A DNA stretch of 54,940 bases from a virus. Its lineage: Duplodnaviria > Caudoviricetes. The number at the start of each line of letters is the position of its first letter. Position 1 is the first letter of the stretch. The notes below the pieces were generated by a model. It had not been told where the DNA came from, searched no databases, and saw nothing but the letters and a program-made list of their open reading frames with translations. The stretch spans positions 1 to 54,940 of the IMG/VR virus record IMGVR_UViG_3300020452_000389; one strand, given 5' to 3'. A program made the position numbers and the translations under genes. Positions 5,649 to 53,519 of the stretch are shown here, piece after piece.

Positions 5649-5651
5649 AAA

Positions 5652-5861: not shown

Positions 5862-6315
5862 GCCAAAAAAGAAATTCACAGAAACTACTGTAGGTAAACT
5901 TTTATTTGGTGCTGCATCAATAGTAAATCCTACGTTAGGTAATGTACTTAAAGGAGTAACATCACCAGGAGAAGCTATAGCCGCTATAGGTAAATCAGAT
6001 GCTAGTAGTGAAGATAAAATTAAACTACAACAATTGATACATGAGCAGCAGAATAAAGAAATGCAGGCTATTACTTCTAGATGGGAAGCAGATTCAAAAT
6101 CAGATTCATGGCTTTCAAAGAATGTACGTCCGATGGTTTTAATCTGGTGTATTGTAGTTTTTTCAATAGCTGGTATATTTGATAGTATAGAAACTATACC
6201 TTTTGCTATTCATGATAATTGGAATGATACTTTTGAAAAAGTTATGATGAGTGTTATTTTAGCTTACTTTGGCGGACGAAGTGGAGAAAAGGTTACAAGT
6301 ATATTTAAAAAGTAA
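5854..6315 (+). CDS. Holin-like membrane protein (GTA 3TM-holin type)
   Basis: RWEADSKSDSWLSKNVRP followed by TM segments and AYFGGRSGEK. Confidence 0.7.
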   Translation: MSKPKKKFTETTVGKLLFGAASIVNPTLGNVLKGVTSPGEAIAAIGKSDASSEDKIKLQQLIHEQQNKEMQAITSRWEADSKSDSWLSKNVRPMVLIWCIVVFSIAGIFDSIETIPFAIHDNWNDTFEKVMMSVILAYFGGRSGEKVTSIFKK

Positions 6316-7406: not shown

Positions 7407-8011
7407 TGCAAAGTTTATATGACTTTATAGTAGAACCATTTGGTAATACTTATGAAAACGAAATAGAGATAGAAAACGTTAAAATAATATTAAACACTAA
7501 GATTGAAAGTTTTAAATTCGTAAACAATGTAGCTAAAGTAATCGAAGTTCCTTTAGCTTTTAAAACTGAAATAAAAAAAGGTGATTTAATTTTAATACAT
7601 CATAATGTTTTTAGAACTTTCTATAACATGAAAGGTGTAAAGAAAAAATCAAGATCTTTTTTTAAAGATAATCAATATTTTTGCTCTTTAGATCAAGTTT
7701 ATTTATATAAAAGAAATTCAAAATGGATGTCAGTAAATGACAGATGTTTTATAAAACCTTTAAAAAACAAAAGTAAATTTAAGGTTGCAAAAGAGCAAAG
7801 TCTTATTGGTATATTAAAAATAGGTAATAGCTCATTAGAAGCGCTAGGAATACACGAGGGAGACACTGTAGGTTATACACCATATGGTGAATATGATTTT
7901 ATTGTAGATAAAGAGCGTTTGTATTGTATGAAATCAAATGATATTGTAATTAAATATGGAGATAAAGAAAACCAAGCTGAGTATAATCCAAGCTGGGCAA
8001 GTAGCGGTTAA
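7406..8011 (+). CDS. Tandem GroES-fold protein
   Basis: Both halves follow the Cpn10 pattern (NDRCFIKP...GILKIG...EGDTVGY...MKSNDIV). Confidence 0.6.
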   Translation: MQSLYDFIVEPFGNTYENEIEIENVKIILNTKIESFKFVNNVAKVIEVPLAFKTEIKKGDLILIHHNVFRTFYNMKGVKKKSRSFFKDNQYFCSLDQVYLYKRNSKWMSVNDRCFIKPLKNKSKFKVAKEQSLIGILKIGNSSLEALGIHEGDTVGYTPYGEYDFIVDKERLYCMKSNDIVIKYGDKENQAEYNPSWASSG

Positions 8012-8231
8012 AGAATTAATTAAAGTTGCAAAAGAACCTATTATAGATTTTGGCCCAGATATTTCCGCTGATCGTTTAAAAAACGCAGCAGCTACTAAAA
8101 AGTTAGCTATATTTGATGCTTTTGAAATCTTACAAAGAATACAAGAAGAAGAAAGTATATTAAACGAAAAACCTAAAGAAGTTAAAGAAGAAAAAACTTT
8201 TAGAGGTTTTGCTGAAGGAAGATCTAAGTAA
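7956..8231 (+). CDS. Putative terminase small subunit or packaging-associated protein
   Basis: Helical 91-aa ORF translationally coupled (TAATG) to terL. Confidence 0.5.
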   Translation: MEIKKTKLSIIQAGQVAVKELIKVAKEPIIDFGPDISADRLKNAAATKKLAIFDAFEILQRIQEEESILNEKPKEVKEEKTFRGFAEGRSK

Positions 8232-33100: not shown

Positions 33101-36100
33101 GTAAAAGCTAATAAAAAAAATGCATGGGTATTTGATGAAATTAGAGCTGAAGCAACTAACTCTCAACAATCTCCATTTAGAACATTATTCCCTGTTTATT
33201 TAGTTGAAGTAGATTTTCAAGGTAAACCACTCAGAAATGTTAAAGGTACAGAAGAGCATTCAACTCCTCAAAACCAAATAGGAACGTTGTTAATTCAAGC
33301 TGCAATTGATCAGAAAGTAGATGAAGTTTTTCCTATTGTAAAAGCTTTAGCTATGCAAGGTTGGTTATCAGATGATGTAGATAATAAGCTTAACGAAGAT
33401 TATAGTAAATCTATGCCTTACAATTTGCTTAAAACAGGTATAGAGCTTTACAACAAAGGTGAATTAAAATTACCTGATGGTACTTTAGCTGCTATAAGAA
33501 TGAGTGAATCAGATGTTGATCTTAGTTTTCAAATGTATATTCCAACAGGTCAAACTTTATCTCAAATATTTTTTGGCACTGAAGATGTTAAACTAGTAGA
33601 TCAAAAACAATTAATGAGAGACTTGTTTAGCGGAAAAAGAACTCAAGCAGAAGTAAAACAAGAAGCTAAAAGATTAGTTAAAATACAACAAAAAGTAGAT
33701 GAAACTTTTAAACCTGAAGCACCTGTAGCTATAGATAGAAACAATACGGCTGATAAAGCTATGGCTGATGCTAGAAACAGTGTTAAATATAAAGAGTCTA
33801 GAAAAGGTATTAGTGTGTTTGATTTTGATGATACACTAGCTCAATCAAATAGTAAAGTTCTTTACACTATGCCTGATGGAACAACAGGTTCTCTTACGGC
33901 AGGTGAATTTGCATTAGAAGCATCGGGGTTAACTGAGTTAGGTGCTGAGTTTGATTTCAGTGAATTTAACGAAGTTAAAGAAGGTAGAAAAGGTCCATTA
34001 GCAGATCTTGCTTTAAGACGTCAAGAAAAATTTGGCAGCCAAGATATATTTGTATTAACAGCTAGGCCTCAAGCGTCAGCTATAAATATTAAACAATTTT
34101 TAGATGAAATTGGTTTAAATATACCTTTAGCAAATATAACTGGTTTAGCTGATGGAAGACCAGAAGCTAAAGCTAATTGGATGATTGAGAAATATGCTGA
34201 TGGTTATAATGATTTTTATTTTGCAGATGATGCTTTTAAAAATGTAGAAGCAGTTCAAAATGTATTTGATGTATTAGATGTTAAATCTAAAGTGCAACAA
34301 GCAAGGGTTAAGTTTAGCGAAAAACTAGATAAAGATTTTAACGACATGATCGAAAGAAACATGGGCGTTCCATCTGAAGCAACATACTCAGATATTGTTG
34401 CAAGAAGAATGGGTAAAAATCAAAAAAGATTTGCATTTTTTATTCCACCTTCAGCAGATGACTTTAGAGGTTTAACAATGTACACATTTGCTGGTAAAGG
34501 GAAGCAAGGTGAAGCTGATCAAGAGTTTTTTAATAAAGCATTAATAAAACCTTATATGGCTGGTGTTAACGCTATGAACTTGTCTAAAAATAGAGTTAAA
34601 AACGCTTATAAAGTTTTACAACAAACTAGTCCTGAAGTTAGAAAAAAATTAAACAAAAAAATTGGTGGTACTAAATACACTCATGATGCAGCTATAAGAA
34701 TTTATTTATGGAGTAAAGATGGAACTAAAATACCAGGTTTATCTAAACGAGACCAGGAACAAATAGTAAAATTAGTAGAAGCTGATACAGATTTAGTAGC
34801 TTATGCTGAAGGAGTAAAACTAATTACTAAACAAGATGTTTATCTTCCACCATCTGAATTTTGGGATGGTACTACTATAATAGGAGATTTATCTAAATTA
34901 ACTAAAGATGTTAAAAGAGAAGAGTATTTAAAAGATTTTTCGCGTAACGTTGATATTATATTTAGTCCTAAAAATTTAAATAAAGTAGAAGCTATTTATG
35001 GTTTTAGAGTAAGAGAAGCTTTAGAAAATATTATATACCGAATGAAAACAGGTAGTAATAGAAAGGCTGGTGCTGATAGAATTGTAACAGCATGGAATGA
35101 TTGGACTAACAGATCTGTTGGTGCTATAATGTTCTTTAATAGAAGATCAGCATTGTTACAGATGTTATCTGCTGGTAACTTTGTTAATTGGTCAGATAAT
35201 AATCCATTAAAAGCAGCGGCTGCATTTGCCAATCAACCTCAATACTGGAAAGATGTAGTTTATCTTTTTAATTCTCCTAAATTAAAAGCTAGAAGATCTG
35301 GTTTAGAAGGAGACATTAATGAAGCAGAAATAGCACAAGCTTCTAAAAAAGGTGGTATGGAAGGTGTGTTATCTTATTTATTAAAAATAGGTTTTACACC
35401 TACTCAAATAGCAGATAGTATAGCTATATCTACAGGTGGTGCATCGTTTTATAGAAATAGAATTAACACATATAAAAAACAAGGATATACCACTGAAGAC
35501 GCAGAGAAAAAAGCTTTTGAGGATTTTTCAGCTATATCAGATGAGACACAACAGTCAGCAGATCCAATGTTAATATCTATGCAACAAGCAGGTACTATGG
35601 GTAGATTAGTATTAGCATTTCAAAACACGCCAATGCAGTATACTCGTTTAATGAAAAAAGCTGGTCAAGATATTATAAATGGAAGAGGAGATTTTAAAAC
35701 TAATTTTTCTAAAATATTATATTACGGGTTTATACAAAACTTAATTTTCTCTACATTACAAAATGCTATGTTTGCTTTATTACCTGGATTTGAAGATGAA
35801 GAAGAACCTGATTTTAAAACAGATAAAGAAAAGGAAGAGTGGTTAGCTAAACAAGATAACAAAATGGACAATAAAACAACTAGAGTAGTTAACAACATGT
35901 TAGATACTTTACTAAGAGGATCTGGTTTAGCTGGAGCTGTTGTTGCTACAACTAAAAATGTTATCATGGAATATAACGATCGTCAAGATATGACTATTTT
36001 AGAAAAATCTAGAAACAACGCTGACTTATTAATAGCTTTATCTAGTATATCACCTCCAATAAGTTCTAAGTTAAGAAAAATAAATAATGCTTTAAATCTT

Positions 36101-36586
36101 GAAGACTTTGAAAGAGATATAATAGCAGAAAGAGGTTTTAGTGTTACTATTGATGGTAAGTTTCAGTTAAGCCCACAATACCAAGTTGTAGGTGAGGTTG
36201 CTTCTGGTTTATTTAATTTACCTTTAGATAGGGTATTTAACGAGGTTAATTCTATTACAGAAGCTTTAGATGAAAGGAATAGTGCTTACCAAAGAATAGC
36301 ACTAGCGTTAGGTTGGAAAACGTGGGATGTAGGAGCTAAGATTGAAGAGCATGAATTAATAAAAACCCTAGCAAAAGAGAAAAGAAAAAAGGAAGGAATA
36401 GAAAAAGGAAAGCAAACTAGAAAAACTAATAAAGAATTAGAAAAAGAGCACGAAAGACTTAGAAGAAGTATTATATTTAAACTACCTAAACCCATAAAAG
36501 ATAGTTTAATAAAAAAAGAAAGAGAAGACAAAAAGATAACTGCAATTTATAAGTTAAATCAATTGAAAGCTAAATACTTAGAATAA
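27116..36586 (+). CDS. Giant internal virion (polyvalent) protein, 3156 aa
   Basis: HELTH zincin motif, sigma-region-2-like segment, complete HAD motif set, helical C-terminal region. Confidence 0.8.
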   Translation: MEVYIVDGRELTLEQFEALAKEAGLSTEKYKALYNVEVKQDPNALDAAAGEDKASWESQLANLRSEYRKTWGDKFWMPEDTPDVTSGRGEMRKREVKRIEFTKAEKELVNKIKSYNENPNNIDFADWQTVINQGEDAIKSYLAQEFPFLRAKDGTIGNAIKVQLANGEFKEIDLKPIFSGQKKQAIEVIKEINATKEEYNNREIIQANMNNLAGSIERSGNVNAVNALLKDNTPYQLEQITEKYDEFAASDIKSYNVYKNGELISTQLPITKVDDFLRENITKVEFDNMVTTSVKAIDEMAALQRAYIERESQVIEEKPETKVKYYKKNYQNDVLDLVKSLGDFSQEELDEIEAYITRTQRQQFPTGTLTSRGYIPNTNTGLSPDEIIRQLTSLEGLSADIKNKLVQRGFINEMKEKVSNGISNIALQEAKEGSKTLLQNALTDIDKNYLLDLANYHNDNTLNKRKKINLENLGGLENDDTKELLTIAGSIKGTDLVLRKRNFEKDNKNAVKAWEDFYNPKLETIQKEFANLLNQLPPTVSVESSETPSGPLFKIDSTKDLGDTENKRVNNLINKITALQSTYHNLVFDANKSKEKIINNYSAFNAQLAEYTKSDYIIDEANKEYGLFNLVTKDVNDAFSQLFLTVPTLLNSDWAIRREKQLKDKNNYYKEMVDPEFSLEYITRTLGQQSANITMAIGIAGLGSIPALGLSDIAISNAIGVSFGLSSGTQTFRDLSIQRDAAEEAKLLAVRYKEAFDAGEISEYNYTIAMRDINTTIAMGKLDDNQILNASIANGIIEGTLTKYIGTASNSIALVKNFTQVDRATIAKTLFQGNPTKFYEFIGKPLVTRTGLEVVEEELIFGGQQFVTEAGILGRDIDREKFLKGANDTFWATVVTAGMSQSTGIVYSGMNAYGITKKYEKVINKSKLVLNDISASIQNLAKGDEGTKNSLLLGMFEELKSMGLAIDQNSIDLLNLSKENKNGESDLKTLIGTQLVKQDYLRSLGIEGGTKAEQESALEAYKATLTEGQLKNLNDTLNAFDTQINNIKEKASKASNYDVAKEALGNIYTIYDESLKNDTEYKAANTQGKLVKIINALREDMRLQNIENAKSNPSIVEQVENMPFAPFTKEGAEQQRDKIYEKLGNEMALQESRGFSTQLNVNRQASLLIGGDLKSVNVVSYKNDEELKDRLEAVGLKKGSPDFMEAFNKLKQGKVFGLVFGKTIITQNEDAVKADLEAGVIRAGTVVLHELTHIIKDAQMKSPESKKKYFDNLFLAASTSNNLALKSIHDQTVNMMNRLYGDKEGENKLKWQDEYTIFLQEQLYAYEDFVQIETDDSFLTKIFNRTNPANLNTPEKALNYLAASNAAFRRGKISRSTKKAVERFEGTNIKESGRDINDLARDYKTLPVDQRASFLLDTDFYRQYLNTSLAAMGFNINKGDIATEQAEGFAVDAFDRVTKSYKPEDGSFTNWIYSTVGREGRAKIGEEIERKKKLVRQSQAQEQTRLVAKETAEDAVSLEERKKAEGTGRTLVDPRKLPGVPSNIDNIVEINKDDVVINPESRSYTTDFRSISDQYGPKVAGEIYGINPSKLKKGADLTYGQNKVVDGRKVSSEAEKIQSEFTNAQNVKKFISLFPEFNISTPTAVTTQQGQETKVDKDVQGRSLGIAPSVQNYFYENYVDPRSLNKETKKDAITNPKGRSKGTTSQTQVKRLKPEFRGTISNETIKKLQNDLGITAKGEFNVPPKGKARTEFGRLLIGLANLKGAIVANTVVDQKIQSLIKKGEIKSVRTPEQITASTRAGRSKIQYSEKAPSEYVVSLMQKLRVLNKESGTKKATREGEFLTRGIQQTRLSDGTEKTIIDRDKYLSDEVAAFKGEMFLEGMTRVINDFLKTYPEFRNFFKQATVFGMDRSAFGVAPLYNKNISTTKSKQANVNRESMTSNKKLTNAYVNEIENNTKSYVAKQKDKIQVLYDFAKAVESYLEQETEVEIDGKIKKVKANKKNAWVFDEIRAEATNSQQSPFRTLFPVYLVEVDFQGKPLRNVKGTEEHSTPQNQIGTLLIQAAIDQKVDEVFPIVKALAMQGWLSDDVDNKLNEDYSKSMPYNLLKTGIELYNKGELKLPDGTLAAIRMSESDVDLSFQMYIPTGQTLSQIFFGTEDVKLVDQKQLMRDLFSGKRTQAEVKQEAKRLVKIQQKVDETFKPEAPVAIDRNNTADKAMADARNSVKYKESRKGISVFDFDDTLAQSNSKVLYTMPDGTTGSLTAGEFALEASGLTELGAEFDFSEFNEVKEGRKGPLADLALRRQEKFGSQDIFVLTARPQASAINIKQFLDEIGLNIPLANITGLADGRPEAKANWMIEKYADGYNDFYFADDAFKNVEAVQNVFDVLDVKSKVQQARVKFSEKLDKDFNDMIERNMGVPSEATYSDIVARRMGKNQKRFAFFIPPSADDFRGLTMYTFAGKGKQGEADQEFFNKALIKPYMAGVNAMNLSKNRVKNAYKVLQQTSPEVRKKLNKKIGGTKYTHDAAIRIYLWSKDGTKIPGLSKRDQEQIVKLVEADTDLVAYAEGVKLITKQDVYLPPSEFWDGTTIIGDLSKLTKDVKREEYLKDFSRNVDIIFSPKNLNKVEAIYGFRVREALENIIYRMKTGSNRKAGADRIVTAWNDWTNRSVGAIMFFNRRSALLQMLSAGNFVNWSDNNPLKAAAAFANQPQYWKDVVYLFNSPKLKARRSGLEGDINEAEIAQASKKGGMEGVLSYLLKIGFTPTQIADSIAISTGGASFYRNRINTYKKQGYTTEDAEKKAFEDFSAISDETQQSADPMLISMQQAGTMGRLVLAFQNTPMQYTRLMKKAGQDIINGRGDFKTNFSKILYYGFIQNLIFSTLQNAMFALLPGFEDEEEPDFKTDKEKEEWLAKQDNKMDNKTTRVVNNMLDTLLRGSGLAGAVVATTKNVIMEYNDRQDMTILEKSRNNADLLIALSSISPPISSKLRKINNALNLEDFERDIIAERGFSVTIDGKFQLSPQYQVVGEVASGLFNLPLDRVFNEVNSITEALDERNSAYQRIALALGWKTWDVGAKIEEHELIKTLAKEKRKKEGIEKGKQTRKTNKELEKEHERLRRSIIFKLPKPIKDSLIKKEREDKKITAIYKLNQLKAKYLE

Positions 36587-38845: not shown

Positions 38846-40567
38846 TTATCCGTCGCAGCTAAGACAGCTGTCGTCCATTGCTTGTTCAGCAATATCTCCA
38901 CGTAACACCGACTCAGTTCTAGTATAATATAAGGTTTTAATACCTTTTTTCCAAGCTTCAAAATGTACTTTATTAATCCATTTAGGTGTTGCTACACTAG
39001 GGAATGCTAGATTTAAACTAACTGACTGATCGATATACTGTTGTCTAATACCTGCTTGGTTTATTAATTCTAATTGATTAATTTCTTTGAAAGTTTTGAA
39101 GACTTCTTTGATTTGTATACCGTGAGGACCTAATATAATTTTGTCTAATGCTTTTATTCCCTGTATAGACCCTCCGTCTTTTAGTATTTGATTCCATATT
39201 TTTTCGTTATCAAGCTTATGTTTTCTTAAGATTTTTTTGAGCGTTGGGTTTTTTCTGATGAAGGTACCCTTAGCGGATTGCTCAGTGAAAACATTAGCCG
39301 CCCATGGCTCAATACCCGGGCTGACATTTCCACTAAGCTTAGAGTTAGAGACAGTAGGAGCAATAGCGCGTAGATGGGTATTACGTAAACCAGTACCGAC
39401 ACACCAAAGAGGTTCTCCAAAAGTTTCTGCCAAAGCTCGTGAAGCTCGTTCAGATTCGATTTTAATTTGACTAAATATTTTTCTTGTTTCATATTGTGAT
39501 AATAATCCTTCAAAAGGTAAACTTTTTTCTTGTAGGTATGTATGCCAACCAAGAACTCCTAATCCTAAAGCTCTACCTTTTTCAGCAGATCTAACAGAAT
39601 TATGAAATCCAACTTTACCTTTTGATTTTTGTATAAATTCTTCTAATACGCCATCTAAAAACCAAGTGGCGTCATATATTAAATTGGTTCCTTTCCATTC
39701 GTCATACTTAGCTAAGTTTAACGAGGATAAACAACAAACAAAGCTATGAGATTCATCTGTATGTAATGTAATCTCAGAACATATGTTTGTCATATGTACT
39801 TTTAATCCATGCTTTTTGTAAGCTGATGGATTACTTTTGTTTGTATTGCCTTTAAATAAGATATAAGGCTCTCCAGTTGCTTTACGCTTTTGTAATAACT
39901 TTCCCCATAGTCTTCTAGCATCTTTATCTCCAGTTTCAACTCTTCGCATAAACTTATCGCCGACCACAGCGCACTGGTGTAAGTTGAGCGATTGACGATT
40001 AACGTCTCCTTTAGGTTCTCGTATTTCGAGCCACTCTTCAAAATCGGGGTGCTCAATATTAATGTTAACGCTTGCAGCTCCTCTTCGGACAGATCCTTGA
40101 TTAGTGGCAAGTATTGTGCTATCGTAAATTTTACAAAACGGCACAGTTCCATCAGATGTTCCATTACCTTTAATTGTTGCTCCGGCAGGACGAATTTGAT
40201 TAACACCTATACCAACTCCCCCACCGTGTTTTGCTAATAACATCATTTCTAAATTTTTATTGCCGATATCATAAATACTATCTGCAACATCGATGCCAAA
40301 ACAGGATATTGGTAAACCTCTATCTGTGCCTGTATTAGACAACACAGGAGAGGCTAAACATAGCCAACCTTTCCATATATATTCAAAGAAAGTTTTAGCT
40401 AATTCTGGACGTTCTAAACGTCTCGCAACGTGATGACAAACACGCTTATAAGCTTCTTTAGGTGTTTCATCGTTATATAAATAACCACCACCTATTGTTT
40501 TTTTATATACATCGGTATCACCCCAAGTAGGATAATCAACTCCTTTTTTCCAGTCTTTATTCCACAT
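38846..40567 (-). CDS. nrdA: Ribonucleotide reductase class I alpha subunit (no ATP cone)
   Basis: PISCF, TNICSEI, VCCLSSLNL, AIAPT, KTLYY, C-terminal CLSC. Confidence 0.95.
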   Translation of the reverse strand: MWNKDWKKGVDYPTWGDTDVYKKTIGGGYLYNDETPKEAYKRVCHHVARRLERPELAKTFFEYIWKGWLCLASPVLSNTGTDRGLPISCFGIDVADSIYDIGNKNLEMMLLAKHGGGVGIGVNQIRPAGATIKGNGTSDGTVPFCKIYDSTILATNQGSVRRGAASVNINIEHPDFEEWLEIREPKGDVNRQSLNLHQCAVVGDKFMRRVETGDKDARRLWGKLLQKRKATGEPYILFKGNTNKSNPSAYKKHGLKVHMTNICSEITLHTDESHSFVCCLSSLNLAKYDEWKGTNLIYDATWFLDGVLEEFIQKSKGKVGFHNSVRSAEKGRALGLGVLGWHTYLQEKSLPFEGLLSQYETRKIFSQIKIESERASRALAETFGEPLWCVGTGLRNTHLRAIAPTVSNSKLSGNVSPGIEPWAANVFTEQSAKGTFIRKNPTLKKILRKHKLDNEKIWNQILKDGGSIQGIKALDKIILGPHGIQIKEVFKTFKEINQLELINQAGIRQQYIDQSVSLNLAFPSVATPKWINKVHFEAWKKGIKTLYYTRTESVLRGDIAEQAMDDSCLSCDG

Positions 40568-40784
40568 CTGTTTCAAACTTTTTTTCTGGTTTGTTTTTTT
40601 CTTCTAATGTTTTTATTTTTTCTACAAGCTTTTTCCATTTGGTTTTTCCTATATACAGTTGGAAGGCTGTTAGAGTTCCTTCAGATAAACCCGCATTTAT
40701 TTGAACCTCATTAATTAAAGCTTGTACAACTTTAGTTAACGACTCTATTTTTTTTTCCATTAAAATTAATTTATTTTCTTTCAT
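40557..40784 (-). CDS. Hypothetical protein
   Basis: 75-aa ORF overlapping both neighbours. Confidence 0.7.
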   Translation of the reverse strand: MKENKLILMEKKIESLTKVVQALINEVQINAGLSEGTLTAFQLYIGKTKWKKLVEKIKTLEEKNKPEKKFETDVE

Positions 40785-41334
40785 ATTTATAAAACATTAC
40801 TATTACTATTCTTTGATCTTTGTATTCATTAGGATATTTGCTATGAAAATAATTACACGGGTATGATAATAACCTATTACCCTTATAACCTATAATAGAA
40901 TTTAATTTCCATTTACTTTTATCATTAGCATCTTCTTTTAGCATACGGTTAAACTCTTTTGTGTTAGACTCTATGTAAGTATGCCCATAATTTTCGTGTT
41001 CCCAAAAAGCTGTTCCGTGTAATTTATCCTCATTAGCTTTAAGAAATAAAACCACCGCTCTATCTGGTTGTTGTCCTTCTATTATAGTATCATTATGTAT
41101 ACGCCATGTGTTGTCTTGATTCTCTTTAGCTTCTCTTGCAAAACATAATATATTTTTAATTTTTTTACCTTCAATTTTTTGTAATGACTTTTCTATATAG
41201 TTTACAAATGTGACAGGTAGTTCTTTGATCCAAAAAGATTTACCAGGTGTTTTAACTTCTTTAAATTCATCACAGTATTTTAATACTTCTTTATATAATG
41301 CATCAGGTAAAAAATTATCTTTTATATATATCAT
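40771..41334 (-). CDS. 2OG-Fe(II) oxygenase superfamily protein
   Basis: IHND (HxD), AVVLFL, GTAFW, NRLLSY...FHS, C-terminal RIVIVMF. Confidence 0.75.
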   Translation of the reverse strand: MIYIKDNFLPDALYKEVLKYCDEFKEVKTPGKSFWIKELPVTFVNYIEKSLQKIEGKKIKNILCFAREAKENQDNTWRIHNDTIIEGQQPDRAVVLFLKANEDKLHGTAFWEHENYGHTYIESNTKEFNRMLKEDANDKSKWKLNSIIGYKGNRLLSYPCNYFHSKYPNEYKDQRIVIVMFYKYERK

Positions 41335-41576
41335 GATATTAAATGTTTGATCCAAGCAAATAAACCGTTTATATTTAATGCTACTAAATTCCATTGTTTA
41401 CGCGCTGCTGTTTGTACCATTACGCAAATAAACCCTGCAATATATAATTTAGGTTCTATAGTCCATTGCGCTGCAACTAAAAAGCCAGCACCCATATAAC
41501 CAATACGAGTGGACATTTTTTCAACAGGTGTTAACCTTTTAGTTGTTGCAATTATTTTTAGTAACTTTCTATTCAT
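41331..41576 (-). CDS. Small three-TM membrane protein
   Basis: Three short hydrophobic segments; QWNLVALN. Confidence 0.65.
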   Translation of the reverse strand: MNRKLLKIIATTKRLTPVEKMSTRIGYMGAGFLVAAQWTIEPKLYIAGFICVMVQTAARKQWNLVALNINGLFAWIKHLIS

Positions 41577-42562
41577 TACCACACATCTTCAAAGTCTTCA
41601 CCCTCATTAGCTTTACTATAATCAGTCGGCCTAATTGCAAAAAAATCTGTATGGGTATGACCACCGGTAAGATGATCAAACCAAGACATATTTTCAATAC
41701 ATTTGGTGTCGTAGAACGTGAAGTCCCATTGCTTATACTTTTTAGTTGTGTAACCCAGCTCCGCAAGCTTGTCACCAACTCTTTTCTTGATAAAATGTTT
41801 AAGATCATATTGTGTTATACCTTCTATATCGCCCATCTCAAATATCTTACTAATGTAAGTCATTTCAGCATTGTGCATTGTTAAGGCTGCTTCAAATATA
41901 TGAGGTTCACATTCGGCTTTTAATCCCGGTATTTGTGAACACATATGTCTAAATAGTTGGCAACCCATCTTACTATGTAGACTTTCATCTCTTACAGACC
42001 ATTTCATCTGTTGCCCGATACCCTTAAGTAAATTACGCATTTGAAAAGAATAAAGGACTGCAAAAGCGGAATATAGAGAAACTCCTTCTGCGAAAGCAGA
42101 AAAAGTAGCCAATGACTTTCCGATACCCACGGGATCATTGCCATCATATGCAACGAGATTGTCAAAACGAGCAGCCGTAGCTGGTTCATGTAAAAATGCT
42201 TCGTAATCTTCGAGTCCAAGTGTTTCATTTAAATAACTATAAGCTACAGCGTGTATTGTTTCTTGTGAGCCGAACATCATAGCCATTTGCTGTATCTCAT
42301 GTTTAGGAAACCATGATACGACTTTCTGTGTCCAATAATCAGACACTGCACATTCTGTTTGTGCAAAACCTAATAATATATTACCTACTAAGTTTTTTTC
42401 TTCTGGAGTTAATTTTTCATTCCAGTCTTTTACATCACCACTCATTGGTATTTCAGTATGCAACCAAAATGCTTGGGCTTGTTTTAACCAACCTTCTGTA
42501 TAATACTCAGGGTATTCAAAAGGCTTATAAGGTATTCTTTCTGTAAATAATGGTATTGCCAT
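41576..42562 (-). CDS. nrdB: Ribonucleotide reductase class I beta subunit
   Basis: QTECAV, QETIHAVAY, AEGVSLYSAF, RDESLH. Confidence 0.95.
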   Translation of the reverse strand: MAIPLFTERIPYKPFEYPEYYTEGWLKQAQAFWLHTEIPMSGDVKDWNEKLTPEEKNLVGNILLGFAQTECAVSDYWTQKVVSWFPKHEIQQMAMMFGSQETIHAVAYSYLNETLGLEDYEAFLHEPATAARFDNLVAYDGNDPVGIGKSLATFSAFAEGVSLYSAFAVLYSFQMRNLLKGIGQQMKWSVRDESLHSKMGCQLFRHMCSQIPGLKAECEPHIFEAALTMHNAEMTYISKIFEMGDIEGITQYDLKHFIKKRVGDKLAELGYTTKKYKQWDFTFYDTKCIENMSWFDHLTGGHTHTDFFAIRPTDYSKANEGEDFEDVW

Positions 42563-42828: not shown

Positions 42829-42994
42829 AGCATTTTATATTATATTGTTTTTGTAACCGGCTTATATCTTTAAACTTTACATAACCCTTTTTACTTATTG
42901 ACCACTTGACAAACTTATCTATTTGTCTTTCGCCATATTTTATTCTAGCTATTCTTTTATTTTCTTTAAAATTAGCTCTACGGTTTTGTCGCAT
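42821..42994 (-). CDS. Small basic hypothetical protein (57 aa)
   Basis: MRQNRRANFKENKRIARIKYGERQIDKFVKW...*; fills the gap. Confidence 0.55.
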   Translation of the reverse strand: MRQNRRANFKENKRIARIKYGERQIDKFVKWSISKKGYVKFKDISRLQKQYNIKCYG

Positions 42995-43401
42995 TCTTTT
43001 TGATTTTGAGGTTTATAAAGTGTAAATGGCTCTATTTTGTTTTCAGCTACTAGTTTCTTAAACATTTTCCATCTCAATGGAAAAGATTCATTAGCTCTAC
43101 CTTTTGTTTCAATAATAAAACCTTTGCCTACAAAATCAGGGGTATATTTAATATTAAGTATTTTTTTGTTACCTCTGTTTTTATAATCTCCTTTATTATT
43201 ACCACAACGTTCATATGATTCAAACGGAAAATTAAAACCCTCTATTAGTTCAAATGTTTCCCCTTCATATAATGCTTTAATTTTTGCTTTTTTCAAAGCA
43301 ATGTACATATATTTTTCAAGTCCTGACGCAAATATAATACCGTCGTGTTCTATTTTTTTACTACGTACAGGACCTCGTTTTTTAGAGTATCTCTTCTTCA
43401 T
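42949..43401 (-). CDS. Endonuclease I-like resolvase (T7 gp3 type)
   Basis: FASGLE, YTPDF, IIETKG. Confidence 0.85.
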   Translation of the reverse strand: MKKRYSKKRGPVRSKKIEHDGIIFASGLEKYMYIALKKAKIKALYEGETFELIEGFNFPFESYERCGNNKGDYKNRGNKKILNIKYTPDFVGKGFIIETKGRANESFPLRWKMFKKLVAENKIEPFTLYKPQNQKECDKTVELILKKIKE

Positions 43402-43669
43402 GTACTTCTATATTATCTACTTGATTTTCATATTGATTTAACAAACATTCTTCAACTTCATCTTGTAAACATCTTTTTGCTGCTTCAATATATAATAATG
43501 CGTCCATTAATTCTTCTTGCACGTCAACTAAAAATCTATTTAGATCTTTCTTTTCATTTTTAATTTCTTGCATCATTGTAGCGCCATACTTTTTTTGGCC
43601 CATTAAACTACGCTCATCCATCTTTCTTAAGACAGCTTGAACTACTTTATCTTCTGTTTTAATTCTCAT
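43382..43669 (-). CDS. Small all-alpha protein, possible nucleotide pyrophosphohydrolase
   Basis: RSLMGQKKYG...QEELMDALLY. Confidence 0.5.
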   Translation of the reverse strand: MRIKTEDKVVQAVLRKMDERSLMGQKKYGATMMQEIKNEKKDLNRFLVDVQEELMDALLYIEAAKRCLQDEVEECLLNQYENQVDNIEVHEEEIL

Positions 43670-44435
43670 CTTTAATAAATGTTCCGTTAATCATTTTTCC
43701 TTTTCTTTCACATATTTCAATATATGCTGATTCAATACAATCTTCAATAAATAAACCTTCAAGATATGCAAGATTTGTTAATACAACAATCATATCACCA
43801 ATACCATCTACTATTTCTGGTCTGTCGTTTTTTAATAAAGCTTTTGCTAATTCACCAGCCTCTTCTTGAAGCTTAACATATTGCGTGTGGCTATTACCAC
43901 CTTCATATATACCTCTTACAGCAGCCCAGTTTCTGATTAAATCAAATTGAGGATTTTTTGGTGCAATAGGTCTTAGATCAGGATTATGTTTTGGATTAAA
44001 ATAAGCTTCGTAAAAAGCTTTATTGTAAATATAACATCTTTCTTTGTTATACATAGAAGTTTTAACATTAGCTAATATCCAAGAGGTATTATCTTCTTTT
44101 ATTTCTAATTGGCCAAACTCAGGGTGTGACCAAGTAAGTCCTATATTATCTAATAATAAAGGAGCTAAATTTTCTACACTACAAGGGAACGTAGTGGTTT
44201 GATCTGTTACGTTAATTTTCATTTTATTAAATAAATTTTTATATAATTTTCTATCTTTCTTGTAGCCATAAGACTGTTGAAGTTCTATTTCGCGATCTGA
44301 TATATAATCTATATCTTCCGATTGCTCAAGAACTTCGTATTCATTCTCCTTATAACCTTGTATAAGGGTTACCCTGTTATTAAGATCACGTGTTACACCG
44401 ATCTTTTTACCTGGTATATGGTATAAATAATACAT
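43659..44435 (-). CDS. Fusion of a GIY-YIG-like N-terminal domain and a MazG-like NTP pyrophosphohydrolase
   Basis: YYLYH..KKIGVT..L..R...E; C-terminal KLQEEAGELA...DGIGD. Confidence 0.75.
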   Translation of the reverse strand: MYYLYHIPGKKIGVTRDLNNRVTLIQGYKENEYEVLEQSEDIDYISDREIELQQSYGYKKDRKLYKNLFNKMKINVTDQTTTFPCSVENLAPLLLDNIGLTWSHPEFGQLEIKEDNTSWILANVKTSMYNKERCYIYNKAFYEAYFNPKHNPDLRPIAPKNPQFDLIRNWAAVRGIYEGGNSHTQYVKLQEEAGELAKALLKNDRPEIVDGIGDMIVVLTNLAYLEGLFIEDCIESAYIEICERKGKMINGTFIKDEN

Positions 44436-44438
44436 AAT

Positions 44439-45083
44439 TTAAATTTTATTGTTATATAAATGCATGTTGTGTGCATAATGATAATAATTTCCGATTTCAA
44501 TATTTAATCTATCTGCAATCATTTGTTGTAACATTGAAAATTGATATTGATCATTACAAAAACCGTACCAGAGATCATTAGAACGCATCAGAACAGCCAT
44601 ATTAAGCCTATGGTTTAGTATTGTAAATTGAATCGCATATGTACAGGGTGTATCTTTTCTGTACAATTGATGTTCTTTACAATCATAAATAGAAATAGCC
44701 GCGTGTCTAGTGTCTTTTTCTCTTCTAAGCTTTGCAACAACATAATCAATTTGATTTTCTCTTTGCCATTGCCAACCATAGTTAGACATTACATTACCAT
44801 CGCTGTTAGCCATCTTTACCCATATAGGTGGTATACTACCATATAGTTGGCCTAACTTTCTAATATTTCTGTCACCAGATAAATACCACTGCCATTCAGC
44901 AGCGGCGTACGCGAGTTTCCATTGTCTTTCTTTATTTAATATATAATTTTGCATTGGATTTTCTAATGTAAAACCAATATTAAATAAAGCTTTTGTGTCG
45001 CCAAATGGAATACCATCTTGAATAATCTTATCTAAAAAGTATTCATATGCTTCGTTAGCGTTTTTAAACTTTGTTTTTGTCAT
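44439..45083 (-). CDS. Thymidylate-synthase-fold enzyme, probable dCMP (hydroxy)methylase
   Basis: PCT instead of PCH; RSNDLWYGFCND with Asp at the ThyA Asn177 position; NMHLY. Confidence 0.75.
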   Translation of the reverse strand: MTKTKFKNANEAYEYFLDKIIQDGIPFGDTKALFNIGFTLENPMQNYILNKERQWKLAYAAAEWQWYLSGDRNIRKLGQLYGSIPPIWVKMANSDGNVMSNYGWQWQRENQIDYVVAKLRREKDTRHAAISIYDCKEHQLYRKDTPCTYAIQFTILNHRLNMAVLMRSNDLWYGFCNDQYQFSMLQQMIADRLNIEIGNYYHYAHNMHLYNNKI

Positions 45084-45327
45084 AATAAAATCTATATAAT
45101 TCGAATATCTTATTGTTCAACTCTCTACCGTTGTAAGTTTTAGGTGATCTACGTTTGACCCCATTAACTTCTACGTCTATCCACCAATGAAAATTATCTC
45201 TATCATTTGATGCTGCAAATGGACCTATTTTAATTCCATTGTTTACACACCAGTTATAAGCAATTCTATCTTCATCAGTCCATTGTGGTGGAACTATTTT
45301 ACTTTTACGTTTTCTAGCTGGAGGCAT
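45064..45327 (-). CDS. Hypothetical protein
   Basis: 87-aa coupled ORF. Confidence 0.7.
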   Translation of the reverse strand: MPPARKRKSKIVPPQWTDEDRIAYNWCVNNGIKIGPFAASNDRDNFHWWIDVEVNGVKRRSPKTYNGRELNNKIFELYRFYYDKNKV

Positions 45328-47057
45328 TATTCCCAGGGCATTGCCTCTTCATTACCTATAGTTGGTAATTCATGAGGTATAAAACATCCTGATCTATGCT
45401 CCCATTTAAAATGTGCTTCAGCTCCATTTTCCCCTAAATTCTGAAACTTAACTTTTAAAACTTTTGCTTTAACAGTTTTAGCTTCATAATCTCTGTGAAC
45501 TAGTATACCGTGATAACTAGCATCATACCATTCACCACCACCTTTAATGTTGTACATAGTTGGTTCTTCAATTTTACCATTACTATCTTTATACATTTTA
45601 GTTGGGTGTGCAACAATAAATACTAAGACATCAAACTTTTTAGCAAACGTTTCAATTTTAGTTAGATACTCCATTGTATACCTATTTACATCTTCAGTTT
45701 TGCAATCTACGTCTCTAATCTTATTAAATGGATCAATAACAAGGCATTTAATACCTTTACGCTTAACTAACTCCGCACCTTTACGTAAAACAGATTCTAA
45801 TGTATATCTTTCCATATCAATAAAATAAAAATTATCATTAACATGTTGCGATACTTGTTTCCATTTACTTCCACCAATATCTGATCTGGTTGGCATATCT
45901 TGCCATACTTTTCTCATTAACTTATGAGCATGTAAATATGTTGGTGCGTTTTCAGGAGATGCAAATGCAGTTTTCCAGCCATAATTGTTATTATAGCCAA
46001 CACACATTTGATCTACAAAATCTGATTTGCCAGATGAAGGAATACCAGTAACTGTAATAAACTGACCAGTATATGTACTGAATATCCTATCAAAATTACT
46101 AAGACCAACTTGAAAACCAGGTTTGAATCCATGTTTAACAAAGTCTGTAACTTCGTCTTCCACGTCTTTAAACGTTGTGACATTTTCCAATGGCACCGGT
46201 CTAGCATTTTTGATTTTTTCTGATAGTTTTTCTTTTCCATATTTTATTAAATAATCATTAGCGTCTTTACATTCTTCAAAGCTAGCTAAGAAGCAAACTT
46301 CTGCTCCTAACCTTCTAACTAATTCATTCTGTAAAGCTATACCAGCTTCATCATTGTCGACAGCTAATATTATTTTTTCTTTATCTGTAAAATAATCTAT
46401 ACAATTATCTAAATAATCTAAGTTATTATGAGTGATTGTAGCTCCATTAGGAACAGATACGACATTTGTTATACCAGCTTCATGTAAAGCTAACACATCC
46501 ATTTCACCCTCTGTTATAATGCAATTGTCATATCCTACAATACTATTAATATTATAGAACACTTTTTCAGCACCTTTATATAATTTAAAGTTTTTACGAC
46601 CATCTCTATATTTAACATTAATAAGCTGATCGCCCATAAAGTATTGAAACTTTATAGTATTCTCGGTCTTGCCGGTTTGAGGCATCCACTCAGAGCCTTG
46701 TCCAACCTTTAGGTCGAATAAGGTCTCTGGTGATATTCCTCTAGTTTCAAACCATTTCAATATCTTATCTTCTAATCCATAAGCTTTGCCTGGATATTCA
46801 GGATCTGGTTGATCAGGTCTAACATAGACCCTTTCACTAGCTCCTTTACGTTGATAAGTATGTAGTTGAAAAGACGTGTTACAATTATGACATGTACCGA
46901 GACCACGTTCCCAATCATATGAAGCACATTTTTTCTTGTGATTCTTGGGTTGTCTGCATGTGGTAGAATTAGGACAAACTCCTTGGTTCTTACCAGCTTC
47001 TAGACCGTGTTGATTGAACTTGTCAATCACAAATCCATTGATCTCTGTTGTCTGCAT
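45327..47057 (-). CDS. DNA primase-helicase (T7 gp4/Twinkle type)
   Basis: Zn finger, TOPRIM EGEMD and DNDEAG, Walker A GIPSSGKS. Confidence 0.93.
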   Translation of the reverse strand: MQTTEINGFVIDKFNQHGLEAGKNQGVCPNSTTCRQPKNHKKKCASYDWERGLGTCHNCNTSFQLHTYQRKGASERVYVRPDQPDPEYPGKAYGLEDKILKWFETRGISPETLFDLKVGQGSEWMPQTGKTENTIKFQYFMGDQLINVKYRDGRKNFKLYKGAEKVFYNINSIVGYDNCIITEGEMDVLALHEAGITNVVSVPNGATITHNNLDYLDNCIDYFTDKEKIILAVDNDEAGIALQNELVRRLGAEVCFLASFEECKDANDYLIKYGKEKLSEKIKNARPVPLENVTTFKDVEDEVTDFVKHGFKPGFQVGLSNFDRIFSTYTGQFITVTGIPSSGKSDFVDQMCVGYNNNYGWKTAFASPENAPTYLHAHKLMRKVWQDMPTRSDIGGSKWKQVSQHVNDNFYFIDMERYTLESVLRKGAELVKRKGIKCLVIDPFNKIRDVDCKTEDVNRYTMEYLTKIETFAKKFDVLVFIVAHPTKMYKDSNGKIEEPTMYNIKGGGEWYDASYHGILVHRDYEAKTVKAKVLKVKFQNLGENGAEAHFKWEHRSGCFIPHELPTIGNEEAMPWE

Positions 47058-48883: not shown

Positions 48884-49648
48884 CTACAGATAGTCAAGCA
48901 CTTGCGAGTGGTCCACACTATCTATTAATTTATCTACTGCTTGTTTTTTTAGCTCTGAAACACGAACATAATTGCTAACTCCATCTATATTTAATTTTGT
49001 TGCTATTTCTTTAGCTGAATGTTTTTCACAGTCTAATCCGTAACTTAACCTTAATACTTCATATTCTTTTTCATTTAAATATTTAGTCATTAAACCTTTT
49101 AAATAAATATTAAGAAGTTGTATATTATATGGTTCAGATTTATCAGGTATTTGGAACATAATGTTTTCTCCATCACTATTTACTGGTTGTGAATCAATAG
49201 ATAAAAATATACTATTAAAAAACATAGCAACCATTTTCTGATCTTTACCATTATCTTTACGCATCTCATTGAGCTTGTGTTCTGGTATTCTTATATCTCC
49301 TCTTGCAGCATCAATTTTTCTACGTAAATGACCTTTGATTCTTTTACTAAAAAAAGATTTTAGGGTTTTTTCTATATCTTCACTTTCTTTTAATGTATCT
49401 CTATCTAATTTAGCAATAGCTCTAGTCAATGCTTCACCTCCAATTTGTATAAAATCATTTATAGTTAATACACCAGAAGCTTGCTGTGATGTTGAGAATT
49501 TTCTAGCTAAATTTTCTACTAAAGGTAAGAATAAAACTTTAAATTCTTCATCTGTATAATCAATCCATTTTTTATGAGGAATTAATTTTAAAGATTCTTT
49601 TAAATCTTCTTTATACCTAATGTAATTTTGTATATTATATTTCTTCAT
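48884..49648 (-). CDS. Phage sigma-70-family RNA polymerase sigma factor
   Basis: LVENLARKF, DFIQIG, IRIPEH; region 4 LNEKEYEVLRLSYGL...KEIA...RVSELK. Confidence 0.88.
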   Translation of the reverse strand: MKKYNIQNYIRYKEDLKESLKLIPHKKWIDYTDEEFKVLFLPLVENLARKFSTSQQASGVLTINDFIQIGGEALTRAIAKLDRDTLKESEDIEKTLKSFFSKRIKGHLRRKIDAARGDIRIPEHKLNEMRKDNGKDQKMVAMFFNSIFLSIDSQPVNSDGENIMFQIPDKSEPYNIQLLNIYLKGLMTKYLNEKEYEVLRLSYGLDCEKHSAKEIATKLNIDGVSNYVRVSELKKQAVDKLIDSVDHSQVLDYL

Positions 49649-50385: not shown

Positions 50386-50716
50386 ATAATTCAATTTTTA
50401 CGTTATTCCATTTTCCATACTTCATAGTTGTGTCAACTAAAAAGTCTATTCTATTTGTCCATCGTTTATTCATACGATCTCTTATGACCCAAAGGCCATT
50501 CATTTCGCCAGCATTGCTAATTAAAACAACGCTATTCATTTTAAAACCTTTAGCTTCAAGATCTCGAGACACAGCTATTATTCTGTGTGACTCGGGATTA
50601 TCCATGTTAATTTTAAAATTAGTAGCAGTTCTATCAGGCGTACTATCAGTTTGAGCTGGAGTTGCATGATATATTGTAGCGGTTACTACAATAATCTTCA
50701 ATGTTTTTAATATCAT
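50369..50716 (-). CDS. 3D-domain (MltA-like) protein
   Basis: VTATIY, IIAVSRDL, VIRDRM, RIDFL. Confidence 0.75.
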   Translation of the reverse strand: MILKTLKIIVVTATIYHATPAQTDSTPDRTATNFKINMDNPESHRIIAVSRDLEAKGFKMNSVVLISNAGEMNGLWVIRDRMNKRWTNRIDFLVDTTMKYGKWNNVKIELYEHNN

Positions 50717-51182
50717 ATAGTTTTTCTTTTTTAATATTACATATAGAGCTTTTGTCACCAATATAGTATTGCCAATAGGCTCTTAAACTATCGCCTTCAA
50801 CTTTATATTCATCAGGCATACACTGTGGAGGTTGTGTGAACTCTTTACCCTGTATATACAGCGGAGGTTTAGCCAGAAAGTCTTTACATTTAGTTATTGT
50901 TAAATGTGTTTTATCGTATCGCTTTGTATACTCATCACCAAGAGCTATCATGTGATCGTATAACCACATGTAAGTAGATCTTGATTTTCTAGCCCATACA
51001 GTTGATGGGTGATTTAAATGAGCCTGTTTATAAGGTACATTTTTCCTCTGCCATTTATCACCATAACAATGATGAGATGTACAAAGCATCTGGGCTGATT
51101 CTAAGATCATTTTAACAACATGCTTATTATATTGTAGCTTTGCTGCTTTAACAGGATCCTCGTGTAAATAAAATATATTCAT
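50646..51182 (-). CDS. Pyrimidine-dimer DNA glycosylase family protein (DenV-like)
   Basis: MNIFYL...KHVVKMILESAQML...HLNHPSTVW...PPQCMPDEYK. Confidence 0.8.
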   Translation of the reverse strand: MNIFYLHEDPVKAAKLQYNKHVVKMILESAQMLCTSHHCYGDKWQRKNVPYKQAHLNHPSTVWARKSRSTYMWLYDHMIALGDEYTKRYDKTHLTITKCKDFLAKPPLYIQGKEFTQPPQCMPDEYKVEGDSLRAYWQYYIGDKSSICNIKKEKLYDIKNIEDYCSNRYNISCNSSSN

Positions 51183-53426: not shown

Positions 53427-53446
53427 TGTATTTAATTTAAAATTAG

Positions 53447-53519
53447 AGCGAAAAGTGGGACTCGAACCCACAACATTCACCTTGGAAGGGTGATGCTCTA
53501 CCAATTGAGCTATTTTCGC
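53447..53519 (-). tRNA. tRNA-Gly (anticodon UCC)
   Basis: GCGAAAA/TTTTCGC acceptor stem, GCTC/GAGC D stem, TCACC-CTTCCAA-GGTGA anticodon arm, GTGGG-TTCGAGT-CCCAC T arm, U73; CCA not encoded. Confidence 0.95.

Follow-up and report, generated by a model that had tools for sequence, protein, structure and literature searches.

A very short thymidylate synthase-fold protein of a marine phage lineage is a predicted dCMP hydroxymethylase with a MazG partner

Introduction

Does a viral gene that looks like a thymidylate synthase (TS) gene serve the synthesis of thymidylate or the modification of cytosine? The question is raised by the gene THY (44439-45083, minus strand) of IMG/VR record IMGVR_UViG_3300020452_000389, a linear stretch of 54,940 bases with an estimated completeness of 85%, which was analysed as a whole and is referred to as the window. 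The original prediction held that THY is a cytosine-specific mononucleotide enzyme misnamed thymidylate synthase, and the active-site signature, phylogeny, fold and synteny described below support this view. Judged by these features, THY is probably a hydroxymethylase of deoxycytidine monophosphate (dCMP) that makes 5-hydroxymethyl-dCMP (5hm-dCMP). To the model as a whole, in which this hydroxymethylase, a MazG protein and completing enzymes of the host give rise to phage DNA containing 5-hydroxymethylcytosine (5hmC), we assign a probability of about 0.7.

The active site of THY

THY encodes a protein of 214 amino acids (aa) that matches Pfam PF00303 (Thymidylat_synt) with E 1.1e-25 and 90.8 bits (cut-off 24.3) over profile positions 40-215 of 266, and as this match is significant the motifs within it are not a product of chance. 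The motif RSNDLWYGFCND (residues 167-178; 44550-44585, minus strand) comprises the equivalents of Arg166, Ser167 and Asp169 (Escherichia coli (E. coli) numbering) and ends with an Asp in place of Asn177. The stretch DTPCT (44640-44654, minus strand) provides an Asp replacing Leu143, the equivalent of the catalytic Cys146 and a Thr replacing His147. Translation places this motif exactly at the coordinates given in the original prediction and confirms the PCT triplet (residues 146-148; 44640-44648), and alignment with E. coli ThyA and T4 gp42 bears out the gp42-like Asp at position 177 and the Cys-Thr pair instead of the PCH of ThyA.

THY was aligned with enzymes of known product from annotated records, taking the residues at E. 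coli positions 92/126/143/147/167/169/177 as signature. With S/R/D/T/S/D/D THY is identical at all seven positions to T4 gp42, the product of which is 5hm-dCMP. It differs from E. coli ThyA and RB69 td (both P/R/L/H/S/D/N; deoxythymidine monophosphate, dTMP), Xp12 TS (S/R/N/P/S/D/D; 5-methyl-dCMP, 5m-dCMP), RB69 gp48 (T/R/E/T/S/N/D; 5-hydroxy-dCMP), SPO1 gp29 (A/R/D/N/S/D/N; hydroxymethyl-deoxyuridine monophosphate, hm-dUMP) and the ViI homologue (G/R/D/N/S/D/N). Only 4 residues follow Tyr209 in THY, as compared to 12 in RB69 gp48, 28 in T4 gp42, 55 in E. coli ThyA, 61 in Xp12 TS, 67 in RB69 td, 119 in the ViI homologue and 157 in SPO1 gp29.

According to the MetaGPA study, dCMP becomes the substrate once Asn177 is replaced by Asp, and metavirome contigs with modified cytosine are told apart from unmodified ones best at positions 177 and 147 (PMC8670742). 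Likewise, N177D has been described as mark of dCMP, L143D/E as mark of hydroxymethyl transfer and D169N as mark of 5-hydroxylation, i.e. of flavin-dependent 5-hydroxy-dCMP synthases (PMC13326640); THY has Asp170 at the position of Asp169 and thus not the Asn of these synthases. Water is activated by a Ser-x-Tyr element together with an acidic residue (Asp or Glu) located three positions ahead of the catalytic Cys, so that hydroxymethylation takes place instead of methylation, and the D145N exchange abolishes the activity of T4 dCMP hydroxymethylase (T4 dCH) (PMC6400193). THY has both the acidic residue (Asp144) and the Ser-x-Tyr element (Ser100-Asn-Tyr102). Finally, Ser167 and Arg126' indicate deoxyribose substrates, Ala and Lys being found in MilA and BcmA (PMC5175136), and THY contains the deoxyribose-type pair, i.e. 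Ser168 and Arg126.

The hallmarks of ThyA are absent from THY. Asn177, Leu143 and His147 are replaced by Asp, Asp and Thr, the C-terminal 50 residues, i.e. the tail that seals the site for hydride transfer in ThyA (PMC6400193), are missing, and THY fails all seven NCBIfam equivalog models of ThyA, scoring 37-71 bits against cut-offs of 108-427 bits. THY also differs from a dCMP methyltransferase of the Xp12 type, as position 143 is acidic and the C-terminus short, one reference enzyme having been compared. Whereas the original prediction had allowed for 5hmC or 5-methylcytosine (5mC), the Asp three residues before the Cys, the Ser-x-Tyr element, the absence of a tail and the retained Asp169 narrow the product to 5hm-dCMP and speak against 5mC. 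Among proteins of its fold that have a full hydroxymethylase active site THY is, judged by its sequence, about the smallest.

Conservation and phylogeny of THY

A word-indexed search scored at least 8000 candidate homologues of THY, all passing E 0.001 and including proteins from Tara and many other marine sources, and a scan of 1.84 billion cluster representatives returned 8012 proteins at E up to 0.001, 44 of them at E up to 1e-30. The best 120 homologues are 193-227 aa long and 71-96% identical, and where the source databases name them they are called 'thymidylate synthase' (JGI). As relatives, 406 viral stretches were confirmed.

The diagnostic residues are conserved. Asp177 and Asp169 are present in all 124 nearest full-length 50%-cluster representatives (the best 150 minus 26 rows under 190 aa), Asp143 in 123 of them; fewer than 30 residues follow Tyr209 in 25 of these proteins and at least 50 in 99. 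In an alignment of 131 rows Asp178, Cys147 and Asp170 are invariant, and Asp144 and Glu63, the equivalent of Glu58/60, are each found in 130. Moreover, Ser100, Arg126, Asp144, Cys147, Ser168, Asp170 and Asp178 are kept in 160/160 viral loci, a count that combines two scans with a few contigs in common.

In a quick maximum-likelihood tree of 137 rows, rooted on two ThyA sequences, THY lies in a clade of 23 rows with a Shimodaira-Hasegawa-like approximate likelihood ratio (SH-aLRT) support of 99. In 22 of its members, the short forms, Tyr209 is followed by 4-20 residues and in the remaining one by 96; a 226-aa protein of Bacteroides phage BF503P2 is among the 23. Deeper relations are unsure since T4 gp42, RB69 gp48 and a second BF503P2 protein form long branches.

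Predicted structure of THY

A sequence search of the PDB with THY gave MilA (4e-17), T4 dCH (2e-16) and, as best ThyA, a match at 1.7e-14. The AlphaFold2 model, based on the 131-row alignment, has a mean predicted local distance difference test score (pLDDT) of 97.4 and a predicted template modelling score (pTM) of 0.93, indicating that the protein, short as it is, folds completely and compactly. With this model Foldseek lists MilA first (TMq 0.88-0.90, root mean square deviation ~2 Å), followed by T4 dCH (0.78) and E. coli TS (0.79), an order that agrees with the sequence search, the E-values to MilA, T4 dCH and TS ranging from 1e-18 to 6e-20.

When two copies of THY were modelled, the prediction scored 0.88 as compared to 0.00 for the best control, a level that was attained for 20 out of 30 solved pairs and for 1 out of 23 single chains. 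The homodimer runs agree in at least 98% of the contacts, with a partner pLDDT of at least 93. As is the case in TS dimers, Arg126 of one copy contacts Ser168 of its partner in the predicted dimer. As TS dimers have already been solved, the model reflects the likeness of THY to TS and is not independent proof of a homodimer.

The MazG partner

The gene next to THY, separated from it by 3 nucleotides (nt), encodes the 258-aa three-domain protein MazG258 (43659-44435, minus strand), identified by Pfam MazG and PRA-PH matches, PHROG and structure. An alignment of 56 homologues and structure matches define a catalytic MazG domain at residues 160-258 (43659-43958, minus strand). The Pfam scores for residues 186-237 are barely above the cut-offs (MazG 22.7 bits, cut-off 22; PRA-PH 21.9, cut-off 21.3), the matches to the MazG-like families phrog_1992 and phrog_715 are strong, and residues E191, E192, E195, D210 and D214 are invariant in 56/56 homologues. 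The AlphaFold2 model (pLDDT 87.7, pTM 0.41) has three domains. Residues 157-258 share the all-alpha nucleoside triphosphate (NTP) pyrophosphohydrolase fold, with VIA Z-scores of 9-10 to MazG, PRA-PH and the MazG-like enzyme of S-2L (7ody, 9.3), of 8.9 and 7.6 to mouse RS21-C6, a dCTPase (2a3q and 2oie), and a Foldseek match to 6sqw at E 0.52. We conclude that 43659-44435 ends in a true MazG NTP pyrophosphohydrolase domain, as the original prediction had it for the gene directly downstream of THY. Its further suggestion that this enzyme removes deoxycytidine triphosphate (dCTP) is weaker and draws on adjacency. The substrate specificity of S-2L and RS21-C6 cannot be transferred to MazG258, since the identity is only 17-21%; the S-2L enzyme, which we take to feed a deoxynucleoside monophosphate (dNMP)-modifying enzyme of the 2-aminoadenine pathway, is a functional analogue only.

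The two N-terminal domains are less clear. Residues ~1-60 are modelled as a beta-beta-alpha-beta-alpha unit, for which a GIY-YIG/T5orf172-like nature is a lead only, resulting from Atlas clusters (12% and 48% of the members) and a reading of motifs. Residues ~75-150 form an alpha/beta domain that has no match in structure searches, and Foldseek against the PDB, a wide VIA-align search and BFVD gave almost solely matches to the MazG domain. Two BFVD rows for the N-terminus, UvrC (probability 0.66) and a group I intron endonuclease (probability 0.20), are too weak to be used.

The linkage of THY and MazG is tight. A first scan covered 80 viral loci, two of which end at THY; in each of the other 78, MazG is the next gene, separated from THY by 3-49 nt. 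In a second, more distant scan MazG follows directly in 66 of the 78 loci with room, lies elsewhere in 8 and is absent from 4, two of the latter encoding THY fusions of 593-608 aa. In a variant order, THY, MazG, exonuclease (L071:3059-3343, L074:5488-5772), the MazG partner has 94 aa and lacks the N-terminal domains, which are thus dispensable for the pairing with THY. None of 1242 records covers at least 80% of MazG258, and the three-domain form was not seen in cultured phages.

Layout of the cassette

The genes around THY are tightly packed, an arrangement that fits one transcription unit: an 87-aa open reading frame (ORF) upstream overlaps THY by 20 nt, MazG258 and the following gene, o95, overlap by 11 nt, and o95 and a nuclease gene by 20 nt. 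A gene for a T7-type primase-helicase (45327-47057, minus strand; Toprim and DnaB_C domains, phrog_239 E 1e-85) lies directly upstream, which places the cassette in the replication module. Further downstream the small subunit (41576-42562, minus strand; PF00268, E 4e-53) and the large subunit (38846-40576, minus strand; PF02867, E 2.8e-93) of ribonucleotide reductase are encoded.

The o95 gene (43382-43669, minus strand; present in 71/80 related loci) codes for a conserved 95-aa protein without known family that has an invariant QEE..D. It was originally predicted to be a second EExxD helical protein that, like MazG, is a candidate for dCTP removal. The motif is real, as EELMD is invariant in 46/46 homologues, which share 20 invariant columns, but a relation to MazG is not detectable. 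No match was found in Pfam, NCBIfam or a phmmer search of the PDB, a PDB profile search was empty at E up to 10, and the Atlas yielded unnamed viral clusters only. We do not adopt the reading of o95 as a second MazG: hhalign gave a probability of 1.3% against the MazG258 family, and Pfam, NCBIfam and the PDB revealed no relation. The neighbouring gene (42949-43401, minus strand) encodes a DUF1064/Holliday-junction-resolvase-like nuclease (PF06356 E 9e-7, phrog_190) and is a syntenic neighbour in 71/80 loci.

Possible route to modified DNA

In the proposed pathway THY would act as a minimal homodimeric pyrimidine hydroxymethylase of the thymidylate synthase fold. Cys147 would attack C6 of dCMP, Asp178 would read and protonate the cytosine, and methylene-tetrahydrofolate would donate one carbon at C5. 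Water activated by Asp144 with Ser100 and Tyr102 would then hydrate the exocyclic methylene, giving rise to 5hm-dCMP and tetrahydrofolate. As hydroxymethylases release tetrahydrofolate they need no dihydrofolate reductase (DHFR) (PMC6400193), and the phage would not need one either. The phage ribonucleotide reductase would supply deoxynucleotides upstream of THY, and MazG258, translationally coupled to THY in this scheme, would most likely cleave dCTP to dCMP and pyrophosphate, thereby removing the competing canonical nucleotide and feeding the hydroxymethylase. By synteny and analogy, the production of dCMP from dCTP by MazG258, with depletion of dCTP, is a tentative and somewhat doubtful assignment. 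Host kinases would convert 5hm-dCMP to the triphosphate and the host replicase would incorporate it, so that cytosine would be partly or wholly replaced by 5hmC, or by a derivative that escaped detection, and the DNA would be protected from host restriction. That host enzymes complete the path and that the phage DNA carries 5hmC or a derivative thereof appears likely to us.

The kinase and replicase steps are left to the host because no phage enzyme for them is detectable. Pfam scans of the 57 ORFs of the window revealed no kinase, glycosyltransferase, DHFR, deaminase, dUTPase or DNA polymerase; for kinase, glycosyltransferase and DHFR the original prediction had already noted this, and its statement holds in these scans and in two Walker-A scans. 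Targeted searches, which included four relatives (G001-G004; 97-100% completeness), found neither dCMP deaminase nor ThyX in the window and these genomes. Based on the listed searches the recognisable nucleotide kit consists of ribonucleotide reductase, THY and MazG258 only. To judge from a complete relative, the ~10 kb absent from the window hold tail-spike and tail-fibre genes as well as small ORFs without family. The lineage apparently uses the host replicase, which would have to accept a modified deoxynucleoside triphosphate, as no phage DNA polymerase of type A or B was found.

Several observations weigh against this model. In the window and the four relatives a T4 gp1-like kinase was found at no E up to 1, a weak test without positive control, and two Walker-A scans, one of them allowing GKD, retrieved only the primase-helicase and a holin-like ORF and no kinase; Pfam and PHROG scans detected none either. 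DNA_pol_A and DNA_pol_B are likewise missing from the window and the four relatives. Without a dNMP kinase a TS homologue led to only trace incorporation in vivo in the case of 5-hydroxydeoxycytidine (5hodC) (PMC13326640). In THY itself, Arg127 is replaced by His at the position of the second phosphate-binding Arg of T4 gp42, and the contrast set contained only one 5m-dCMP enzyme, Xp12 TS. The MazG domain shares ~50% identity with MazG-like proteins from many temperate phages of Gram-positive hosts (Paenibacillus, Streptococcus and Staphylococcus), and this generic phage type of MazG is also common in phages without TS homologues. MazG258, with its two extra N-terminal domains, has no detectable similarity to T4 gp56 (BLASTP E 0.052 over 20 residues), i.e. 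the two proteins are not orthologous. Finally, we know of no assayed member of the short-form clade.

A bolder version of the model holds that abundant marine flavobacterial podophages replace cytosine by 5hmC with a two-gene kit, relying either on host kinases and Pol III or on o95 or the N-terminal domains of MazG258 as a new hm-dCMP kinase or dCTP-exclusion factor. In this extended form we consider the model rather unlikely.

Alternative explanations

The alternative that survives best accepts the hydroxymethylase and adds a further step, in which the hydroxymethyl group is glycosylated, carbamoylated or extended in another way on the DNA by o95, the product of the 87-aa ORF that precedes THY, the two N-terminal domains of MazG258 or a protein encoded elsewhere, so that the base would be a further-decorated 5hmC. 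A precedent may be Lactobacillus phage ATCCB, in which a homologue with DTDD signature is followed by an annotated beta-glucosyltransferase and an annotated UDP-galactopyranose mutase, and in two viral loci the short enzyme is fused to a ~370-aa domain without Pfam match. In the window phage o95, a protein outside the known families whose homologues share 20 invariant columns, would be available for such a task. Nevertheless, Pfam scans detect no glycosyltransferase, carbamoyltransferase or other transferase domain in the window or, judged from the complete relative, in the missing ~10 kb, and the cassette proteins without known family are small, which makes decoration improbable. Regarding the two systems just mentioned, the ATCCB locus (MK504445.1, 4995-8050) encodes a 'thymidylate synthase' with the full hydroxymethylase signature ahead of the two sugar genes, and its sequence suggests that this cultured phage has glycosylated 5hmC. 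The fusions (L103:3989-5812, L104:1230-3008) are 593-608 aa long and consist of a short Asp177 TS homologue with Asn147 and the ~370-aa C-terminal part, a candidate tailoring domain; no MazG was found in these two loci.

THY might instead be a dCMP methyltransferase leading to 5mC in DNA, as in Xanthomonas phage Xp12. Asp177 alone also fits this, as N177D turns ThyA into a dCMP methylase (cited in PMC8670742) and five of seven tested Asp177 homologues from metaviromes made 5-methyldeoxycytidine (5mdC) (bioRxiv 10.1101/2024.12.05.627091). However, Xp12 TS has Asn143, Pro147 and a 61-residue tail, whereas THY has Asp143, Thr147, the Ser-x-Tyr element and 4 residues, and lacks the tail that seals the site of ThyA for hydride transfer (PMC6400193). 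Moreover, the 5mC makers of the preprint had been chosen for a cis-linked dCMP deaminase, the companion of the Asp177 homologues that made 5m-dCMP (bioRxiv 10.1101/2024.12.05.627091); as none was found here, its absence is counted in favour of 5hm-dCMP, and we regard a methyltransferase as quite improbable.

Hardly more credible is a product that is not meant for DNA, i.e. a role of THY and MazG258 in reshaping the nucleotide pool, by draining dCTP or countering host defence, or an action of THY on cytidine monophosphate (CMP) like that of MilA. Although no kinase or polymerase was found that would carry hm-dCMP onward, and although the closest solved fold, MilA, is a CMP enzyme, Ser168 and Arg126 of THY are deoxyribose-type, as opposed to Ala and Lys in MilA and BcmA. 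Furthermore, T4 gp42, the characterised phage enzyme of the same signature in our comparison, feeds DNA, and the cassette lies between primase-helicase and ribonucleotide reductase.

A flavin-dependent 5-hydroxy-dCMP synthase of the RB69 gp48/DLP3 gp80 type would share with THY the Asp177, the acidic residue 143, Thr147 and the short C-terminus seen in RB69 gp48, but is very improbable as all synthases tested in PMC13326640 have Asn169, which is Asp in THY and its 131/131 relatives, and no arabinose or glycosyl genes were found. An ordinary thymidylate synthase, in line with the PF00303 match and the naming of several close homologues by JGI, is contradicted by the sequence tests, i.e. the Asp/Asp/Thr residues at 177/143/147, the loss of the C-terminal 50 residues and the seven failed equivalog cut-offs, and is extremely improbable. 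Thus, a dCMP hydroxymethylase remains the preferred reading of THY.

Comparison with known systems

As a hydroxymethylase, THY would be related most closely in function to T4 gp42 (PDB 1b5d, 1b49, 6a9a), which acts together with the dCTPase gp56 and the dNMP kinase gp1. The fold is the same and all diagnostic residues are identical, a nucleotide pyrophosphatase is predicted alongside, and the modification would likewise be made at the mononucleotide level before replication. THY differs from gp42 in that the two proteins have only ~23-24% identity, comprise 214 and 246 aa, respectively, and end 4 and 28 residues after Tyr209; moreover, unlike T4, the window phage yielded no match in the searches for a gp1-like kinase, a glucosyltransferase and a phage DNA polymerase. 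The best match in both sequence and structure is MilA, the CMP 5-hydroxymethylase of Streptomyces rimofaciens (PDB 5jnh, 5b6d, 5b6e). Both MilA and THY have Asp at 177 and 143; MilA, however, favours ribose by Ala176 and Lys133, where THY has Ser and Arg, is ~100 residues longer and serves antibiotic synthesis.

The nearest homologue in a cultured phage is the 226-aa 'deoxycytidylate 5-hydroxymethyltransferase' of Bacteroides phage BF503P2, which is 41% identical to THY and belongs to the same clade with the same signature; this annotation is presumably computational. Unlike the window, BF503P2 encodes another Asp177 homologue close by, which is longer, as well as a dUTPase. In this cultured gut phage (OP172671.1) the TS-fold genes are located at 5109-5915 and 7989-8669 with the dUTPase gene between them; both encode Asp177 and Asp143, and one is very divergent, with Leu at the position of Glu58.

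The kind of system is already known from the T-even phages, and its metagenomic signature, i.e. Asp177, a residue other than His at 147 and PRA-PH neighbours, was published in 2021. In this MetaGPA study (Yang et al., eLife 2021, PMC8670742) Asp177 and non-His147 are the top discriminating positions, both of which fit THY, and TS homologues co-occur with PRA-PH domains on cytosine-modified metavirome contigs, coastal seawater being one of the sources; the clusters highlighted there also hold deaminases or carbamoyltransferases, whereas none was found here. Particular to the present system are the very short enzyme, the three-domain MazG partner, the abundance of the lineage and the fact that no phage kinase, polymerase or glycosyltransferase was found. 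Among the literature matches listed no paper links a hydroxymethylase to phages of Cellulophaga, Flavobacterium or Polaribacter, and the main text of the flavophage paper PMC8776804 does not mention thymidylate, MazG or modification.

If the model is true, 5hmC is present in the DNA of a group of phages that is common in metagenomes of the ocean. This would affect the behaviour of viromes in enzyme-based library preparation and methylation-aware sequencing, would bear on the question of which restriction systems influence the dynamics between flavobacterial hosts and their phages in blooms, and would change the counting of 'thymidylate synthase' genes as auxiliary metabolic genes in marine viromics. 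Due to its small size THY may be a convenient subject for mechanistic or tool work, and the missing kinase and polymerase would make the system suited to testing which parts of the T4 pathway are really necessary.

Genome context

The window has a G+C content of ~31%. The plus strand encodes GroES/GroEL-like chaperonins, terminase, portal, virion proteins and a 3156-aa ORF, and the minus strand from 38.8 kb on carries the replication and nucleotide module. The terminase shares 44.5% identity with its counterpart in Flavobacterium phage elemo and otherwise matches phages of Cellulophaga, Tenacibaculum and Maribacter, and the proposed family 'Pervagoviridae' has a cpn10 chaperonin as one of its core proteins (PMC8776804); from both, the host is probably a marine member of the Flavobacteriia. 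A close cultured relative was not found, as the best match to THY in the phage database is only 41% identical. By terminase (64%) the closest complete genome is MW202828, which carries ThyX instead.

The record opens with a GroEL-like gene (177-1739, plus strand; phrog_5725, E 1e-136) and a GroES/Cpn10-like gene (1720-1983, plus strand; PF00166, E 2e-11), GroEL being found in 5/5 related genomes searched. For the 3156-aa ORF (27116-36586, plus strand) Pfam gave no match up to E 0.01; a similar giant gene of 11.6 kb is present in MW202828. Between the two ribonucleotide reductase genes lies the gene of a DUF6445-like 207-aa protein (40771-41394, minus strand; E 1.2e-4, just under the cut-off), which occurs in only 2/80 related loci and which we assume may have a 2-oxoglutarate (2OG)-Fe(II) oxygenase-like fold.

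Beside the T7-type primase-helicase, genes for an Erf annealing protein, an exonuclease, a ligase and a sigma-factor-like protein are present. A sigma-70 region-4-like protein is encoded in the early region (48884-49648, minus strand; phrog_351), and a pyrimidine-dimer glycosylase resembling T4 endonuclease V is weakly matched at 50646-51182 (minus strand; PF03013 E 8e-4, phrog_624 E 1e-48). The sole tRNA of the record is a tRNA-Gly with the anticodon TCC (53446-53519, minus strand).

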